Part shown: one piece after another, positions 11,617 through 25,512 of the stretch
Layout: each line of letters begins with the position of its first letter
Position numbering within the stretch: the first letter of the stretch is position 1
NCBI RefSeq assembly: GCF_003334385.1
Contig: NZ_QOWN01000049.1
Direction: 5' to 3' (one strand)
Origin: Escherichia coli
GTDB lineage: Bacteria; Pseudomonadota; Gammaproteobacteria; Enterobacterales; Enterobacteriaceae
DNA length: 33,115 nt
Made by a program: the position numbers and the translations under genes
The notes under the pieces: generated by a model
Database searches by the model: none
Told to the model about the DNA's origin: nothing
What the model saw: the letters and a program-made list of their open reading frames with translations, nothing else

Positions 11617-11939
11617 TCTAACCACATCAGCACGCAACACAAAAACCGCTTGCCAGCGCTCGTCGTGTCGGGTTACATTTCCGCTGCACCTCATAAAACG
11701 GGTGCCGGGATTTCCACCCCGCTGACAAACGAAGCGCACAGCCGCGCCAGCGGTTTTTTTGTGCGTACTGTATCGCCACGTCTTTTTCGCGTCAGAATTA
11801 TGGCGGGGCGTACAGGGCCGACTTCGGTCGGGCCGGTTTCTTCGTTTGCCGGTTGTGGAAACCCTGTACGTCTCGCCACCCTGAGTTTTCCACCTCTGGT
11901 TGGTGAGTTTTCAAAATTCACAAACGAAGAGGCCACACC

Positions 11940-17047: not shown

Positions 17048-17601
17048 AGTTCTCACCCGGCAATACACCACTGATTCAGACAGATGATTATCATCACCAC
17101 CCACCCCCAAAAATCGCAAGATAAAAAATGCACAAAAGCGCACGAAATTGCACAATTTTTCTTATGTGTTTCATCCCCATTCAGCCCAGTAACGGCGCTG
17201 GCTGAGGCCGGTTTGCACGGTGCACGAAAAACGAGGCAATTGCAGTGCGCAGGCGACGAGGGAAGGGCGCCCGAATTGAGGGGTGGAAGGCAGGTTGCTT
17301 TATTTGGGGTCGTATTGCGCGTGATACGCACGCAGTGAAGCCGGTTCTGAAAAAACCACACCGAAACAGAGTCAGAAAAACAGGCCGCCAGAATGCGTCT
17401 GGTTGAGTTTTACGGGGTCGGGATTAAATGCGGAAACATCACACCGCAGGCATGACGCGAAAAAGAGAAAAACCACAGCAAAACATAATGTTAAATGTTA
17501 TTGATGAGTTGAGAAGCGAAAGGTGTATTGCGTTGACAGAGCTGGAGAGTCGGGGCATAAATTTTTTATGCCCCGGCGAAGCAGCCGACAAGCGAAGCGC
17601 G

Positions 17602-18645
17602 TCAGCTGGCGCCATCCTGAAGCAGCGAATAGGGATTAAAGCGCATCACTTCAACCCCAAGCCATTCATTGACATGCTTCATCGCTTCCATGACCGGTTG
17701 CAACTCGTTGATGAAAAATACCCTCGCCGCCTTCTCAACGTCACCGAACGCCGCGTTCCCGTCAGGCATTGCCCCCATCAGCTGAGGCGGTACACGGTGA
17801 GCCGCAAGGATATCGTCGCGGGCACTCCCCTTGATGTTAAGGAATTCGTCCTTCGCGGTGATTTGCTGGAACGGCAGTATTTGCACACCATCCTTGCCGC
17901 CACCTGGCGCGTGCAGAAGGATATTGCGGAACGCCCCCTTGCCACGGGATTCCGTGAGTGTTTTCTTGATGGCTTCCACGCTTTCAGCGTTTGCCTGGGC
18001 GGCACCAACATAGACAATGCACCCGGCATGTGAACCGTTGTCATAGTAGAGCTTGCGGAACGTATCCGCTGAGTTCGACAGACTCACCGACAGCAACCCA
18101 CCGATATACTCCGGCATCCCGTAGATTTCCTGGTTGATATCGGGGTTCAGAACGTGGCACACAGCCCCCTTACGGAAAGCAAATTCAGAACCATCATCAT
18201 TGAGGTACCAGTACGTATCGAGATCACTGCCCCGCCGCGTGTATTTCGCCAGCGCAGGACGAAGCGCAATGGGTTCACCGAACTTGTTGCGGCGGACTTC
18301 AAGATAGGCATTACCGAACACGAACCAGTCCAGCGCAAACGCGGAAAACGCCTGGCGGGACAGTAGCGGATGAGGAACAAAGCAGCCGTTCAGGGCATTA
18401 CGCTTAAAATACAGGGCCGACTGGTGCCATGATGCACAACGCGAGGCGCGAGCAATGGCATTCCAGTCCATGGGGGTGTCATAGTAGCGGCCATTATCGG
18501 CGCACGACATGTTATCAAGCAGATCAAGACGGCTTGCTTCATAAGGACCGTCAAACGTGAAAGCACTGAGTGACGGCGCTGATTTCAGTGCATCAGCCAG
18601 TGAGCCCGTGCCGCGCTTTCCGGTGTATTTTTTACGTTTACTCAT
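17602..18645 (-). CDS. Q: Portal protein, P2 gpQ family
   Basis: 347 aa, size and position matching P2 Q; immediately followed on the same strand by the large terminase. Confidence 0.88.
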   Translation of the reverse strand: MSKRKKYTGKRGTGSLADALKSAPSLSAFTFDGPYEASRLDLLDNMSCADNGRYYDTPMDWNAIARASRCASWHQSALYFKRNALNGCFVPHPLLSRQAFSAFALDWFVFGNAYLEVRRNKFGEPIALRPALAKYTRRGSDLDTYWYLNDDGSEFAFRKGAVCHVLNPDINQEIYGMPEYIGGLLSVSLSNSADTFRKLYYDNGSHAGCIVYVGAAQANAESVEAIKKTLTESRGKGAFRNILLHAPGGGKDGVQILPFQQITAKDEFLNIKGSARDDILAAHRVPPQLMGAMPDGNAAFGDVEKAARVFFINELQPVMEAMKHVNEWLGVEVMRFNPYSLLQDGAS

Positions 18646-18650
18646 TGTGT

Positions 18651-20384
18651 TCAGAACTCCATTGCAAAGCCACGATTATCCTCACGCTCTGCGCCGATTG
18701 GCTCATTGATAACAGCAAGCATGGTTGCCCAGGCGAGATCACCATGACTGACACCGCGTGAGCGGTCAGTGTCATAGGTGATATAGCCGCCGGGCGTCTG
18801 TATTTTTCGCACCGATGCAAAGGCCTGTACCAGGTCGCGCTCGCTGCGGTCATACTCCCAGCGTCCGGCACGGACCACCTGAAGCATCTTCATGACCAGC
18901 GCCCGCTTTGAAGCGATATTAAAGTTATACGGAACAGCCAGGGGGAAGAATTTTTTCACTATCTGATAAACCCCTTCCCCGTTCCCGCCGGTGACATCAA
19001 TCCCGATATGCTTCACATTGTATTTTTGGGTGTACTCCTCAATCAGGGCGGCCTGCTGTTCAAACTCCATGCCCTGAACCCTGACGGTTTCCACCGTACG
19101 AAAACGCCCACCGGCAACAAGGGGTGGCACGCACACCGACAGCGCCCCGCAGTCCCCCTTCCCGCTGCTGCCGTTGGCGTCATACCCGAGCCAGACTTCC
19201 CTCACCCCCATAGGGCGGACAGCAAAAGGCTTCCAGTCCGGCCATTCGTCATAGCCATCAACACCGCACCCGACGAGCGTATTCAGACTGAAGGCTGCCT
19301 CACCATCACGGACAAATTCGCACATGTACAGATTGCGAAATTCACTTTCTGTATTTTCGCCGCGAATATCATCAATACTGGTGAACTGCCATCCGTTAGC
19401 GACAGCATCCTCAATGGTGACAATCTGCCGCCACGTTTTGTCGGGAAAGAGCACGCCCCTCTTCAGGTGAGCATGTGAAACATCAAACTCACTGCGTTTT
19501 GAGCGTGGCTGTTCGCTGTTCCAGCGGTCCCCCGTCCAGAACTGATACGCCTCATGCATTTCCCCCGACGGCGTCGAGAAGTAAGTGCGCGTAAGCCCTT
19601 CCAGGGTCGCCATTGCCCCGGCAACCTTCCTGAGGTTCACAAAGTTACTGACCCAGAAAAATTCGTCGAATTTAAGATGACCGGTATAGGACTGCGCGGT
19701 GGCAGCTGACGTACCGAGGAAGTGCAGCTCCGCGCCGTTGGACAGCACGATCTTGTCGCCCCCTTTCAGCTCAACATCCACTTCCAGCGCCGCCTGCTGA
19801 ATAAAATGCTTGAACTGATACGCCTGACGACGGGAGGCGGACAAAAATATCTGGTTGCGCTGATACCCGGCGGAGACGTCATCACGCAGTGCATCAAGGA
19901 GCGCCTCGCGCGCAAAATACCAGGTCGCACCAATCTGACGCGACTTCAGGATCATACGGTTGCGGTGGTGACGGTTTTCGTACCATTCACGTTGATGCCA
20001 CGCCAGCGTCGGGAGGATTTTTTCACGAAGCGCGACAATCTGTTCTTCGGTGAAGTGATTTTTCAGTCTGCGTTTACGGGGCTTTTTACCGGAAACGGCC
20101 TGTTCTCCCTGACCGTCATTCAGTTTTTTCAGCTGGCGCGTGAGAAGGTCAATTTCCTTAAAATCGCTGCCGCTTTTCTCTGTTTTTGTGGTGAGCTGGA
20201 TCAGGCGCGCATCAATGGACTGGGTGACCCGCTGGATCGGAGGTGTGGCATCCCACTCATCGCGTTTTTTCCATGAGTAAATCGTGTTCTGGCTGATCCC
20301 CATCAGTTGCGAGATTTCCGCAGGTGTGTACCCTTGCCAGTAAAGTTGTCTTGCCCTTATGCGGACAAATGCATCCTGAATCAT
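18651..20384 (-). CDS. P: Terminase large (ATPase) subunit, P2 gpP family
   Basis: N-terminal HTH-like segment (YTPAEISQLMGISQNTIYSWKKRDEWD) and size matching P2 P; ATG 20384 has an aggggg RBS; the in-frame ATG at 20429 (592 aa) is the alternative. Confidence 0.88.
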   Translation of the reverse strand: MIQDAFVRIRARQLYWQGYTPAEISQLMGISQNTIYSWKKRDEWDATPPIQRVTQSIDARLIQLTTKTEKSGSDFKEIDLLTRQLKKLNDGQGEQAVSGKKPRKRRLKNHFTEEQIVALREKILPTLAWHQREWYENRHHRNRMILKSRQIGATWYFAREALLDALRDDVSAGYQRNQIFLSASRRQAYQFKHFIQQAALEVDVELKGGDKIVLSNGAELHFLGTSAATAQSYTGHLKFDEFFWVSNFVNLRKVAGAMATLEGLTRTYFSTPSGEMHEAYQFWTGDRWNSEQPRSKRSEFDVSHAHLKRGVLFPDKTWRQIVTIEDAVANGWQFTSIDDIRGENTESEFRNLYMCEFVRDGEAAFSLNTLVGCGVDGYDEWPDWKPFAVRPMGVREVWLGYDANGSSGKGDCGALSVCVPPLVAGGRFRTVETVRVQGMEFEQQAALIEEYTQKYNVKHIGIDVTGGNGEGVYQIVKKFFPLAVPYNFNIASKRALVMKMLQVVRAGRWEYDRSERDLVQAFASVRKIQTPGGYITYDTDRSRGVSHGDLAWATMLAVINEPIGAEREDNRGFAMEF

Positions 20385-20451
20385 TGACGCCCCCTTGCTG
20401 TTTGATCTCAAGAGTAAACGCCCGCGCATTCATCCAGGTATCCGGTGCCAT

Positions 20452-20469
20452 TGTCGCCACGCTCTTACA
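20452..20469. promoter_or_regulatory. Late-promoter activator site (TGT-N12-ACA dyad) in the divergent P/O region
   Basis: tgtcgccacgctcttaca in the 112-157 bp P-O intergenic region; P2 late promoters carry a TGT-N12-ACA element near -55 recognised by Ogr/Delta-type activators (established knowledge); spacing fits a start site ~27 nt before O. Confidence 0.5.
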
Positions 20470-20541: not shown

Positions 20542-21378
20542 ATGGCAAGTAAAAACGCGCCAGTACGGAAAAAATTCCGCGTCGCCGTCTCGGGCACCAC
20601 CATCGACGGGCGTGAGATTTCGGGGCTGATGTTGCGTCAGGCCGCTGAGAATTACGACCCGGAAGTGTGGGGGTCACGGGTGAACGTGGAGCACATGCTT
20701 TCACGTATGCCATCCAGTGAATTCAGTGCCGTGGGCGATGTGATTTCACTGTCCACCGAAGAAATCACGGAAGGCAAGCTGGCCGGTCGCACCGCACTGT
20801 ATGCCGAAATAGAGCCAACCCACCGTATGACGGAGATGTTGCGAGACGGCAAGAAAATCTACTCAAGCATTGAGCTTGAACCCAACATTGATGCCGTTGG
20901 CGGCCCTTACGTAATTGGCCTGGCAATGACCGATACCCCGGCAAGTCTCGGCACTGAACGACTGAAGTTTGCCGCCCAGCAGCGCGCCAGCATCATGCAG
21001 TTCAACAGCCGCAGCGGTGAGCCAGTCATGTTCACCGAATGTATGGAAGCGGAACTCGCGGCCTCCGTACAGGACAGCACCGAAGAAAGCCAGAAATGGT
21101 TTTCGCGCGTCATGGCGCTCATCAGTAAAACCCGTGACACGGACAGCGAGCAGTTCGCTCACGTGCGCGAAGCCGTCGAGAGCATTGCCACGGAACAGGC
21201 CGGCCTTCTGGATCGCTTCCATGCGATGGAAGAGCAACAGCGCAGTGATAAGGCATCACTGGAAACCCTGACCCGCGAACTGACTGAACTGAAGGCGCAG
21301 CTGAAAACCGAAGATGCAGACAAGGAACAGCGCTTTGCTTCAACCGGTGGCAACAGCCACGCCCTGGCTGATTTTTAA
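20542..21378 (+). CDS. O: Capsid scaffolding protein, P2 gpO family
   Basis: 278 aa; position between terminase and major capsid; acidic coiled-coil-like C-terminus; ggggattt RBS. Confidence 0.88.
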   Translation: MASKNAPVRKKFRVAVSGTTIDGREISGLMLRQAAENYDPEVWGSRVNVEHMLSRMPSSEFSAVGDVISLSTEEITEGKLAGRTALYAEIEPTHRMTEMLRDGKKIYSSIELEPNIDAVGGPYVIGLAMTDTPASLGTERLKFAAQQRASIMQFNSRSGEPVMFTECMEAELAASVQDSTEESQKWFSRVMALISKTRDTDSEQFAHVREAVESIATEQAGLLDRFHAMEEQQRSDKASLETLTRELTELKAQLKTEDADKEQRFASTGGNSHALADF

Positions 21379-21393
21379 CAGAGGAACAAAATC

Positions 21394-22488
21394 ATGGGAA
21401 ACCGCTTAACGCTTTCTCGCGAAGGCCGCAGCAATCTTGAGGCCTATCTTGCACGCCAGGCTGAACTGGCCGAAACCACCGTAGAACGACTGGGGAAAAC
21501 CTTCAGCGTTGATCCGGCTGTTCATCAGAAGATGGAAAACGCCATCAAAGAGAGCGACGAGCTGCTGAAAAGAATCAACAGCATCGGCGTTGACGATCAG
21601 GAGGGTGAAAAAGTCCTGGTGAATACCAGCGGCCCCATCGCCAGCACCAACTCAACCAGTGACGGCGTGAAGCGACGCAATCCCGCTGACGTCTCTGATC
21701 TGGCATCACGTCGTTATCGCTGCGAACAGGTGAACTACGACACCTTCATCAGCTACGCACAGATTGACGCGTGGAGCAGCCAGAAAAACTTCCAGCAACT
21801 GCTGAGTGCACAAATCACCCGACAGATTGCACTGGACCGTATCATGATTGGCTTTAACGGTGAGTCGCACGCCATCATCTCCGATCGTTCTGCCAACCCG
21901 AAACTTCAGGACGTTAACACCGGGTGGCTGAAACACATCCGTGAACACGCCACGACGCGTGTCGTGAAGGCAATGACGCTGACCCGTCGCGATCATGAAA
22001 ACAAACTGGTTGCAAAAGGCGACTACGGCAACGCTGACGCGATGGTTAACGACATTCGCTCTTCCATACTGGATGAGTGGCACAAGGACGCCCCGGATCT
22101 GGTTGTTGTCATGGGCCGCAACCTGTTCAACACGCTGCGTCTGCCTATGATTAACGCCATCAGCACCACCAACCCGAACACGGAGCTGGTCGCCGGACAG
22201 CTGATTACAGCCTCCCGCACCATTGGCGCGCTGCCAACCTTCTTTGCGCCGTACTTCCCGGACGATGCCATGCTGATCACGTCGTTCAGCAACCTTTCGG
22301 TCTACTTCCAGAAAGGGTCACTGCGTCGCTTCATCCGTGAAGAGCCGGAGTACAACCGTATCGCCACCTACCAGTCCATGAACGACTGCTACGTGGTGGA
22401 AGACTACGGCAAGTGCGCACTGATTGAGGGCATTTCTTTCGCCGGTGAAGATCCGGAAGACAAGAAAGAGGCAGAAGCACAGGCGTAA
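21394..22488 (+). CDS. N: Major capsid protein, P2 gpN family
   Basis: 364 aa; blocks such as DPDLVVVMGRNLF, PYFPDDAMLITSFSNLSVY and YVVEDYGKCALIEGI parallel P2 N as recalled; aggaac RBS. Confidence 0.9.
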   Translation: MGNRLTLSREGRSNLEAYLARQAELAETTVERLGKTFSVDPAVHQKMENAIKESDELLKRINSIGVDDQEGEKVLVNTSGPIASTNSTSDGVKRRNPADVSDLASRRYRCEQVNYDTFISYAQIDAWSSQKNFQQLLSAQITRQIALDRIMIGFNGESHAIISDRSANPKLQDVNTGWLKHIREHATTRVVKAMTLTRRDHENKLVAKGDYGNADAMVNDIRSSILDEWHKDAPDLVVVMGRNLFNTLRLPMINAISTTNPNTELVAGQLITASRTIGALPTFFAPYFPDDAMLITSFSNLSVYFQKGSLRRFIREEPEYNRIATYQSMNDCYVVEDYGKCALIEGISFAGEDPEDKKEAEAQA

Positions 22489-22496
22489 CGCATTAT

Positions 22497-22516
22497 GGCG
22501 GGCACATGTGCCCGCC
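22497..22516 (+). terminator. Perfect 20-bp GC-rich palindrome downstream of the capsid gene (hairpin / attenuator candidate)
   Basis: ggcgggcacatgtgcccgcc is its own reverse complement, 9 nt after the N stop; no strong T-tract follows, so it may be a partial terminator or processing element. Confidence 0.35.
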
Positions 22517-22537
22517 GGTTAATCAGGAGTCGAATAC

Positions 22538-23347
22538 ATGCTGACACCGGCACAACGATACCTTCAGCGCGTGATGGCGCATCATCGGGCTGATCCATTC
22601 AGTCGCGAAGAGCAGCGAACACGAACGGCACATGAACAGGTTCTTCACCAGTTACGCCTCGCCCAGTTGCAGCTGAAGGGCGTGCAGTCGAACATCGCGA
22701 AAGCGGAGCTGAAGAAGCACCTGATACCGAATTTTGAAGGCTGGATAGACGGCACGCTGGCAGGCGACAGCGGACGCCAGGACGAAGTCATTACCACCAT
22801 GATGGTGTGGGCAATTGACTGCCGGGATTATCCGCTGGCACTGCGTATCGGTGAGTACGTCATTCGTCACCGGCTGGCACTGCCGGACAACTTCGGGCGC
22901 GATTCGGCGACCGTGCTCACCGAAGAAATTGCCGAAGTTGTGCTGACAGAAGCCGCCACCAACAGCGAAACCGACTTATCCGGCTATATCCGTATGCTGG
23001 ACGAGCTGGATGCACTGGTTCACGACCAGGACATGCCGGATCAGGTTCGTGCAAAACTACATAAGGCGCGGGCATTTTCACGGCGCGCATCAGGCAGTAC
23101 GGAAGACATGACTGTGTCACTTGGTCTGCTGCGTGAAGCTATGCGCATCAATCCGGCAGCAGGCGTGAAGCGTGAAATCGCCACGCTGGCCAGAAAGGTA
23201 TCAAAGGTTCAGCCGGAACCGGAAAAACCGGCAGAAGAGAAAAGTAAATCGAAAGCAACATCAGGGCGCAAAAAGCCGACTACAAAAGCGACGGCCAGAA
23301 AAGCCACGAAAAAAACCGCCGCAAAACCGTCGCGCAAGGCGACCTGA
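22538..23347 (+). CDS. M: Terminase small (endonuclease) subunit, P2 gpM family, with Lys/Ala/Thr-rich C-terminal tail
   Basis: Position and ~245-aa core consistent with P2 M; caggag RBS; C-terminal ~50 aa are low-complexity basic (KSKSKATSGRKKPTTKATARKATKKTAAKPSRKAT). Confidence 0.8.
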   Translation: MLTPAQRYLQRVMAHHRADPFSREEQRTRTAHEQVLHQLRLAQLQLKGVQSNIAKAELKKHLIPNFEGWIDGTLAGDSGRQDEVITTMMVWAIDCRDYPLALRIGEYVIRHRLALPDNFGRDSATVLTEEIAEVVLTEAATNSETDLSGYIRMLDELDALVHDQDMPDQVRAKLHKARAFSRRASGSTEDMTVSLGLLREAMRINPAAGVKREIATLARKVSKVQPEPEKPAEEKSKSKATSGRKKPTTKATARKATKKTAAKPSRKAT

Positions 23348-23455
23348 TAACACCGGACCCGACCTCGTCGGCAGGCGGCGCGACCGGTGATCTGATCGCT
23401 GACTCCCGGTCATTTTCACCGGTCGCCCACCGCCTGATCTACAGGAGAAGACATC

Positions 23456-23950
23456 ATGAGCATGGTAGCCAGACCCCGTGTGAACGACGCCACGGATGAC
23501 ACGACAGACACCGACGACGGAGAAGCGCGCATCAGTACAGACGCGTTCTGGCCGGATATCGTGCTGAAAGAGCTGCGCCTTGCCATGCGCATTCCCGGGC
23601 GCACCACCACGTCACGTCTGCTGCATTCGGCCACCGAAGCTGTGGCACACGTAACGGCAGAGCTTGACACCTGGAAACAGAAACAGGAGGCGGCGGGACG
23701 GTCGACACTGGCGGACGTTCCGGCAGCACACATCAACGGTGAGAGCGTGAACGTGCACCGGTATCGACGCGCGGTGTATGCACTGACCCGCGCGGGCGTT
23801 CTTGAGCGTTCGCGGGATGTGGACACCACCGACAAAGGTGATCGCCGGGCCGATGCGCTGGACATGCAGATTGAAGATATGTGGCGCGATGCACGCTGGG
23901 CAATATCCGATATTCGCGGCGTCAGACGGATTTATGCGGAGCTGATTTAA
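23456..23950 (+). CDS. L: Head completion/stabilisation protein, P2 gpL family
   Basis: 164 aa at the gpL position; ggaga RBS; stop overlaps the X start. Confidence 0.8.
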   Translation: MSMVARPRVNDATDDTTDTDDGEARISTDAFWPDIVLKELRLAMRIPGRTTTSRLLHSATEAVAHVTAELDTWKQKQEAAGRSTLADVPAAHINGESVNVHRYRRAVYALTRAGVLERSRDVDTTDKGDRRADALDMQIEDMWRDARWAISDIRGVRRIYAELI

Positions 23951-25397: not shown

Positions 25398-25512
25398 ATG
25401 GAGCGATCGGCTACTGGAAGCACTCGACACATGCAACGCAGACAAGGCTGCGATCGCCTGGCTGGATAAACAAAGAGCAGAACGGGCGCAAGATGCGCCC
25501 CATCAGGAGTAA
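25201..25512 (+). CDS. o-spanin (Rz1/LysC-like outer-membrane lipoprotein)
   Basis: GTG start after ggagag RBS; lipoprotein signal with lipobox LLLLSGC; overlaps the 3' end of the i-spanin gene out of frame. Confidence 0.6.
   Translation: MKKCKKPCRATRVPALILPLLLLSGCSNTPHTLKTRLVYEPVPTVLTRQTPVPALEIPVTWYRVTEWSDRLLEALDTCNADKAAIAWLDKQRAERAQDAPHQE

Follow-up and report, generated by a model that had tools for sequence, protein, structure and literature searches.

Stem-loops lying between the cistrons of a message or at its 3' end protect the upstream mRNA from 3' exonucleases, a principle that has been reviewed (PMC7509114). The REP element between malE and malF of E. coli and the hairpins of the puf operon of Rhodobacter are G+C-rich stem-loops that follow the most needed cistron without a U tract, and in these respects they match a hairpin found between the major capsid gene N and the small terminase gene M of the P2-like prophage described here. 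The N-M hairpin differs from REP and BIME elements in being single-copy, specific to a phage lineage and much shorter than REP/BIME arrays, and its stabilising action is one that we infer. A different precedent is given by phiX174, where TJ, TF and TG are terminators recognised by standard predictors that block 20–40% of transcription. In T7, the terminator hairpin T-phi follows capsid gene 10 and steps down the distal genes. Like the N-M hairpin, these elements lie after structural or capsid genes, and there they lower distal expression and set virion ratios; unlike them, the hairpin of this prophage and the 57 variants found in related phages lack a U tract. Tuerk and colleagues are said to have described, in 1988, C(UUCG)G hairpins in intercistronic regions of phage T4. 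These resemble the N-M hairpins of our prophage's relatives as short, extra-stable intercistronic RNA hairpins, 10 of the 57 variants carrying C(UNCG)G on a GGCGGGC stem, but the likeness is with the relatives, since the loop of the prophage itself is CAUG and not UNCG. Phages P2, 186 and Fels-2 share with our prophage the genes, their order and the late operon. They differ at the N-M junction, where the two genes are 3–4 nt apart, no hairpin is present and the Shine-Dalgarno sequence (SD) of M lies inside N, an arrangement of the translational-coupling type.

The window, the whole stretch of 33,115 nucleotides that was analysed, is E. coli chromosomal DNA with a P2-like (Peduoviridae) prophage, which in E. 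coli strain G1/2 lies between dmsA and serS. N-M copies at 99.3–99.8% identity are present in 14 complete E. coli genomes, with two more at 97.3% and 23 further genomes matching at about 78%. The 99.8%-identical E. coli copies are annotated 'phage major capsid protein, P2 family' and 'gpM: phage terminase small subunit', so the gene identities hold and the palindrome does lie between capsid and small terminase genes, as the original prediction had it. Abundant products of P2, the scaffold and the capsid, are encoded upstream and catalytic or low-copy products downstream, and the prophage has the same gene order. The divergent P/O late promoters have their activator-type dyad, TGT-N12-ACA, at 20452–20469, between P and O; it is the sole site of this type in the head region, with no second one near N-M. 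The features to which the text refers are as follows.

11686–11760 and 11796–11883: matches to the Rfam families isrK and C4 antisense RNA.
17602–18645, minus strand: portal gene.
18651–20429, minus strand: large terminase gene P.
20542–21378, plus strand: scaffold gene O.
21394–22488, plus strand: major capsid gene N (P2 family), an open reading frame of 364 aa, 40% identical to P2 gpN, with the PGAP name taken from 99.8%-identical prophages.
22489–22537, plus strand: N-M intergenic gap of 49 nt, with a layout common to 57 distinct gaps of related phages.
22497–22516, plus strand: RNA stem-loop, from predicted fold and conservation with compensatory changes.
22525–22529, plus strand: SD of M (AGGAG), predicted to be almost fully unpaired with the hairpin formed.
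22538–23347, plus strand: small terminase gene M, an open reading frame of 269 aa, named from the annotation of 99.8%-identical copies.
23359–23436, plus strand, in the M-L gap at 23348–23455: M-L element, a small hairpin (23359–23371) and a long hairpin (23372–23436), from fold and covariation.
23456–23950, plus strand: head completion gene L, followed by X and the lysis genes.

The isrK and C4 matches (64 and 82 bits, above the gathering score) adjoin one another in the prophage early region, and an STnc130 match of 125 bits lies at 4127–4261 in host DNA beside dmsA. No Rfam family matched 22489–22537, either at gathering thresholds or at E up to 10. A 656-aa DUF6645 gene (25516–27486), a moron-like insertion relative to the P2 gene order, lies between the lysis genes and tail genes R/S. 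Other hairpins were also seen along the prophage. A strong 13-bp hairpin, GTCGGGGCATAAATTTTTTATGCCCCGGC (17549–17577, −20.1 kcal/mol), sits just past the 3' end of the minus-strand portal gene, close to the place that cos and the end of the P-Q operon take in P2-like phages. Within the final codons of scaffold gene O, immediately ahead of the N ribosome-binding site, CAGCCACGCCCTGGCTG at 21354–21370, with ATTTTTAACA after it, makes a hairpin that resembles a terminator. At 27771–27791, in the region 25516–27888 and between the DUF6645 gene and the tail genes that come next, the hairpin ACCCTCCGGTATACGGAGGGT is accompanied by a minus-strand T run and resembles a terminator that would serve the open reading frame 27565–27837 of that strand. 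The tail tube gene of the same prophage, beyond the window, is followed by a 51-nt gap (36221–36271 of locus record L122, minus strand) in which a weaker G+C hairpin (GGGGC..GCCCC or ACAGG..CCUGU) immediately precedes the tail assembly gene's SD; this is another hairpin 3' of an abundant structural protein gene.

The 20-mer GGCGGGCACATGTGCCCGCC at 22497–22516 is exactly self-complementary, as claimed at the outset and confirmed both by reading the sequence and by script, and it is the longest perfect palindrome of the window, the runner-up reaching 14 nt; a repeat-finding program did not report it. It lies in the N-M intergenic gap, which corresponds exactly to 22489–22537 between the N stop codon (TAA, 22486–22488) and the ATG of M at 22538. 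In order, the gap consists of an 8-nt spacer after the N stop, the hairpin, an 8-nt A/U-rich linker (GGUUAAUC), the SD AGGAG and a further 8 nt before the ATG. No U tract lies 3' of the palindrome on either strand (plus-strand tail GGTTAATC, minus-strand tail ATAATGCG); the linker GGUUAAUC has three non-contiguous U in 8, and the terminator scan made no call at the site. The absence of a following U tract had likewise been asserted beforehand and is thereby upheld for both strands. As RNA, 22497–22504 pairs with 22509–22516 to give an 8-bp stem with seven G-C pairs, of the G+C-rich kind found in intrinsic terminators although without the U run directly 3' of the stem. The loop is CAUG (22505–22508), and an optional ninth U·G pair may form between 22496 and 22517.

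A calculation of folding energy, one of the checks proposed for the palindrome, came out both ways. The predicted hairpin is stable, at −15.7 kcal/mol alone and −17.2 kcal/mol for the whole N-M gap, and none of 150 size-matched windows from the flanking N and M coding sequence reaches the hairpin's energy. Compared with shuffled sequence, the fold of the gap nonetheless lacks significance (z = −1.44; 21 of 200 shuffles give an equally good fold), and when the whole window is dinucleotide-shuffled a perfect palindrome of at least 20 nt arises 12 times in 300 (4%). When more flanking sequence is included, the hairpin's predicted probability lies anywhere between 0.10 and 0.96, with alternative pairings competing. 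In the local fold the SD of M has a paired probability of 0.06, and with the hairpin formed it is about 94% unpaired. Chance is thus only moderately excluded from the single sequence alone, and the comparative evidence is decisive.

For this comparison, loci with relatives of N were taken from viral contigs and named phages, and gaps with an N identity of 50–100% were folded; 90 locus records yielded 57 distinct gap sequences, with locus L035 excluded from the folds for an ambiguous base. At this range of N identity the N-M gap measures 40–69 nt in all loci but one (L049, 2 nt). Every one of the 57 distinct gaps holds one G+C-rich hairpin in the same place, with a stem of 7–11 bp and a loop of 3–9 nt, starting a median of 8 nt past the N stop and ending 3–7 nt ahead of the SD of M (12 nt in a single lineage). 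At least 15 stem sequences are represented, completely unlike between lineages, among them GGCGGGC, ACGGGCGC, GCCGGGU, GGCCAGC, GCAGGCCG, GGUGCCG, GCCGGGG and GGCGGGG, and further GGCGGGCA, ACGGGCGCA, GCGGGCGC, GCAGGCCAGC, CCGGUGCCG, GCCGGGGA and GGCGGGGC. Every 5' arm is complementary to the 3' arm of the same hairpin, whereas swapped arms give 60 ± 3% pairing with a maximum of 72% (2000 shuffles). These pair statistics were computed by script on a loop-anchored alignment and are partly circular, so that weight is carried by the coding-DNA control, in which size-matched windows of flanking N and M sequence from the same locus reached the observed energy in 0 of 150 cases for 14 stem classes and in 2 of 150 for one class. 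This identifies the hairpin as a structure under selection. RNAalifold returned no structure from a MAFFT alignment of the hairpins, in which MAFFT had placed the unlike stems in different registers.

Conservation among related phages had been named as a test of the original prediction, and the answer divides: the hairpin of 7–11 bp is kept in all 57 gaps and the perfect 20-nt palindrome is not. In the nearest relatives (N identity 98–99%) the loop reads CACG, or the stem is shortened around a loop ACATGC. The conserved feature is the 8-bp G+C stem with its 4-nt loop and not the 20-nt palindrome itself, which arises in the window because the tetraloop CAUG happens to be self-complementary. Loops are diverse (34 different sequences of 3–9 nt) and the hairpins contain no bulge. 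UNCG tetraloops stabilise RNA in the sense orientation only. Ten of the 24 tetraloops are of the C(UNCG)G type (UUCG, UACG, UGCG, UCCG) with the N position alone varying, and about nine variants have internal G·U pairs that would be C·A mismatches on the opposite strand. Both features speak for the mRNA strand, and for thermodynamic stability over recognition sequence as the thing selected. The more stable hairpin is the sense one in 29 variants and the antisense one in 9, with differences of up to 10 kcal/mol (for example −13.4 against −6.2 and −15.0 against −4.5 kcal/mol). The hairpin exists and is kept by selection for sense-strand pairing in which stability is favoured and no particular sequence is; judged by its conservation, the element is functional. 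The exact 20-mer recurs in four viral contigs, all of them P2-like prophages at the same N-M junction, and in two unrelated alphaproteobacterial contigs among 100,044 representative genomes.

The hairpin has a bounded distribution within the family. Besides P2, 186 and Fels-2, it is absent from a Yersinia phage, Halomonas and Shewanella phages, Vibrio Kappa, Pseudomonas phi3, Burkholderia KS14, a Mannheimia phage and contigs with an N identity of 47% or less. In these hairpin-less members N and M are 0–18 nt apart, 2–4 nt in most, and many junctions read UAA-CC-AUG. Named phages with the hairpin are Escherichia phage 520873 (Xuanwuvirus), Salmonella phage SEN4 and Klebsiella phage ST16-OXA48phi5.4, and the spacer with hairpin and SD marks a sub-clade that includes Xuanwuvirus, Senquatrovirus SEN4, Reipivirus and the window's prophage. 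The family thus shows two designs with nothing between them, a tight junction of 0–18 nt or a spacer of 40–69 nt with a hairpin and its own SD; among the loci examined, none had a spacer of at least 40 nt without the hairpin. Because P2, 186, Fels-2 and many other members do without it, the hairpin is not essential to the biology of the family. It has a practical use for annotation, as it marks the true M start downstream of it. In the Klebsiella phage ST16-OXA48phi5.4 record (MK416015.1; 2255–2275 of locus record L110) the small-terminase CDS is deposited with its start at an ATG within the hairpin (ATGGCGGGCAGC...), and the conserved M start ATGCTGACACCGGCACAA lies 36 nt downstream of this annotated ATG, after the SD; the annotated start is probably a misannotation.

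Taken together, the strong stem, the extra-stable loops, the lack of a U tract, the position past the ribosome and the abundance of the upstream products make a barrier to 3'-to-5' exonucleases the best-supported reading. The palindrome is the DNA image of a sense-strand mRNA stem-loop, and to the reading of that stem-loop as an exonuclease barrier we assign a probability of roughly 45%. A stable sense-strand stem-loop in an untranslated gap of a polycistronic mRNA, as known stabilisers have, is what is found here. The late polycistronic mRNA that carries it begins at the O promoter and runs O-N-M-L onward. Beginning 8 nt past the N stop, the hairpin falls just outside the footprint of the terminating ribosome and could persist on translated mRNA. 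Were the message cut downstream, in the A/U-rich linker before the M ribosome-binding site or further on, PNPase and RNase II would work back from the cut in the 3'-to-5' direction until the stem stalled them. The O-N part of the message, coding for scaffold and capsid, would in that case outlast the part from M onward and accumulate above it, an outcome that would fit the need for hundreds of capsid subunits per particle and for terminase in catalytic amounts only. The barrier itself, a cut downstream of it and the N:M mRNA ratio to which they would lead are steps that we infer. Of the earlier suggestion of an RNA-stabilising stem, the RNA-level nature is supported by a structure that is kept across at least 15 stem sequences and by its sense-only G·U pairs and UNCG loops, and the effect on mRNA ratios stays a proposal. 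Several observations weigh against a stabiliser: the single-sequence fold is not significant (z = −1.44), competing pairings lower the hairpin probability to as little as 0.10 in some of the longer contexts (range 0.10–0.96), and P2, 186, Fels-2 and many others manage without the hairpin. The constant end of the hairpin 3–7 nt before the M SD would also suit a role in M translation equally well, and a similar hairpin followed by AUCAGGAG at 25484–25500 sits in a coding region, where a 3' barrier is less natural.

A role in M translation is accordingly a serious rival, if an unlikely one on our estimate. The hairpin would here act as a translational decoupler or insulator that parts the M ribosome-binding site from the heavily translated N, so that M is set independently and low relative to N; it could do so by blocking re-initiation or scanning by ribosomes that terminated on N, or by locking up G+C-rich sequence to fix the accessibility of the SD. 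The either/or architecture of the family speaks for this, with tight coupling-type junctions (e.g. UAACCAUG) set against a spacer of 40–69 nt that always comes with a hairpin and a separate SD, as do the end of the hairpin 3–7 nt before the SD in nearly all variants, the window's SD left about 94% unpaired and the second hairpin directly before the AUCAGGAG SD at 25484–25500. Tight spacing may, however, be mere genome compaction; relatives do not conserve the alternative fold in which the M start is enclosed; and no pairing of the hairpin flanks with the SD is conserved (mean spacer-SD pairing 0.35 against 0.46 with shuffled spacers; 0 of 56 at the 10% level). Rather less probable still is a leaky factor-independent terminator or pause site, in which the G+C hairpin with the weak tail GGUUAAUC would stop some RNA polymerases after N and so lower transcription ahead of M. 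A G+C-rich stem of 8–9 bp directly 3' of a highly expressed gene would suit it, some relatives have four U in the first 8 nt past the stem (e.g. GUUAUUCG), and the example of phiX174 shows that terminators blocking only 20–40% of transcription can set structural-protein ratios. A real U tract is nevertheless found in none of the 57 variants, which argues for selection on the stem itself and not for termination, and the mean of 2.1 T in the 8 nt after the stem equals the 2.2 of the antisense side. The terminator scan did not call the site, and the essential downstream genes (M, L, X, lysis) have no nearby promoter-like or TGT-N12-ACA site, that is, no Ogr-type restart. As the M-L element has U runs in many lineages, U tracts can evolve here where wanted. 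The partial terminator put forward in the original prediction is weakened by these results, and a canonical terminator was rejected for want of any scan call or U tract among the 57 gaps.

At the level of DNA, the palindrome would be a dyad site for a dimeric protein, or a cruciform or single-stranded hairpin used in replication, packaging or recombination, a reading that we regard as very improbable. The perfect 20-bp dyad of the window, the predicted DNA hairpin of −11.1 kcal/mol (z = −2.4) and the ability of defence systems such as DdmABC to sense phage palindromes as DNA are in its favour. The nearest relatives lose the perfect dyad through their CACG and ACATGC loops, though, and loops of 3–9 nt are asymmetric; pairing is conserved and half-site sequence is not, and the sense-only G·U pairs become C·A on the other strand. 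The 20-mer is also not a dispersed repeat. An 8-bp arm is very short for cruciform extrusion. Conserved half-sites with a shared dyad, as an operator would have, were not found among the relatives, and the protein-binding site once suggested for the palindrome thus goes unsupported.

A number of further candidates were tried and rejected. Masking of the SD, opened by the N-terminating ribosome, was considered because many minimum-energy folds pair the spacer with the SD, yet the comparison with shuffled spacers given above (0.35 against 0.46; 0 of 56) does not bear it out. A two-state switch, in which the 3' arm and GGU would pair with ACCGGC in M codons 3–5, failed as the complementarity is not conserved in relatives. 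Recoding by readthrough or frameshift, stimulated by a hairpin 8 nt past the stop, was dismissed: gap lengths of 40–69 nt differ by non-multiples of 3 among close relatives, the stop and last sense codons vary, and the M frame has a TAA at 22520–22522. The promoter scan found no sigma-70-like site in the N-M gap and the sole TGT-N12-ACA of the head region is that at 20452–20469, and an internal late promoter was rejected on this ground. The element is single-copy, with one copy of the palindrome in the window and none of the dispersed copies expected of REP/BIME, so a REP-like or mobile repeat was discarded. An RNase III site of the T7 R-site type would need about 20 bp of double-stranded RNA, and the stem has only 8–9 bp here and 7–11 bp in relatives. 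A translational operator of the MS2 coat-protein type was set aside for the 34 different loops, the absence of a bulge and a hairpin that excludes the SD.

The neighbouring M-L gap contains a structure much more elaborate than the N-M hairpin. In its long hairpin a 1x3 internal loop, with the C at 23379 opposite CCA at 23427–23429, separates the outer helix CAGGCGG/CCGCCUG from an inner helix of 11 bp (23380–23390 with 23416–23426), and the window copy folds at −48.6 kcal/mol (z = −4.8). The element occurs in nearly all Peduoviridae examined, P2 and 186 included, in a gap of 91–115 nt in nearly every record. Across records the outer helix GGCGG/CCGCC is conserved in sequence, the 1x3 loop is invariant and the inner helix covaries freely. 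In an alignment of 31 sequences from Escherichia, Klebsiella, Salmonella, Pseudomonas, Burkholderia, Ralstonia, Mannheimia, Halomonas and Shewanella phages, 94.9% of cells pair and 65 cells are changed on both sides; none of 500 shuffles reaches any observed measure, and covariation is 0.43 against 0.04–0.07 in slid controls. No Rfam match was found for the element. A U run follows it in many lineages, not all, and the whole-gap folding energy does not favour the sense strand, the antisense being better in 63 of 85. A GGCGG/CCGCC helix is common to the window's N-M hairpin, most relatives' hairpins and the M-L outer helix (GGCGG-C ... CCA-CCGCC). It is conceivable, if rather a long shot, that the N-M hairpin and the M-L element are two cooperating RNA signals, at which a common nuclease or RNA-binding protein, of phage or host, would cut or protect the O-N, M and L-onward segments and so give them separate lifetimes. 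Further along the window, a G+C hairpin, GGGCGCAAGATGCGCCC, lies at 25484–25500 directly before CAUCAGGAG and the DUF6645 gene, whose ATG is at 25516, in a layout like that of N-M although inside the 3' coding end of the lysB/lysC genes.

The N-M element is of an ordinary kind, an intercistronic mRNA hairpin after a capsid gene, and a specialist would find none of its implications surprising. Our searches found no literature on this hairpin and no transcript maps of hairpin-bearing P2-like phages, and it appears to be newly documented for this P2-like clade. As a compact, terminator-free stabiliser part it would be a candidate for synthetic operons. If the exonuclease-barrier role is true, this clade would set its capsid-to-terminase ratio post-transcriptionally by means of a small RNA hairpin where P2 and 186 use a tight translational junction, and the family would offer a natural example of two interchangeable solutions to one stoichiometry problem.
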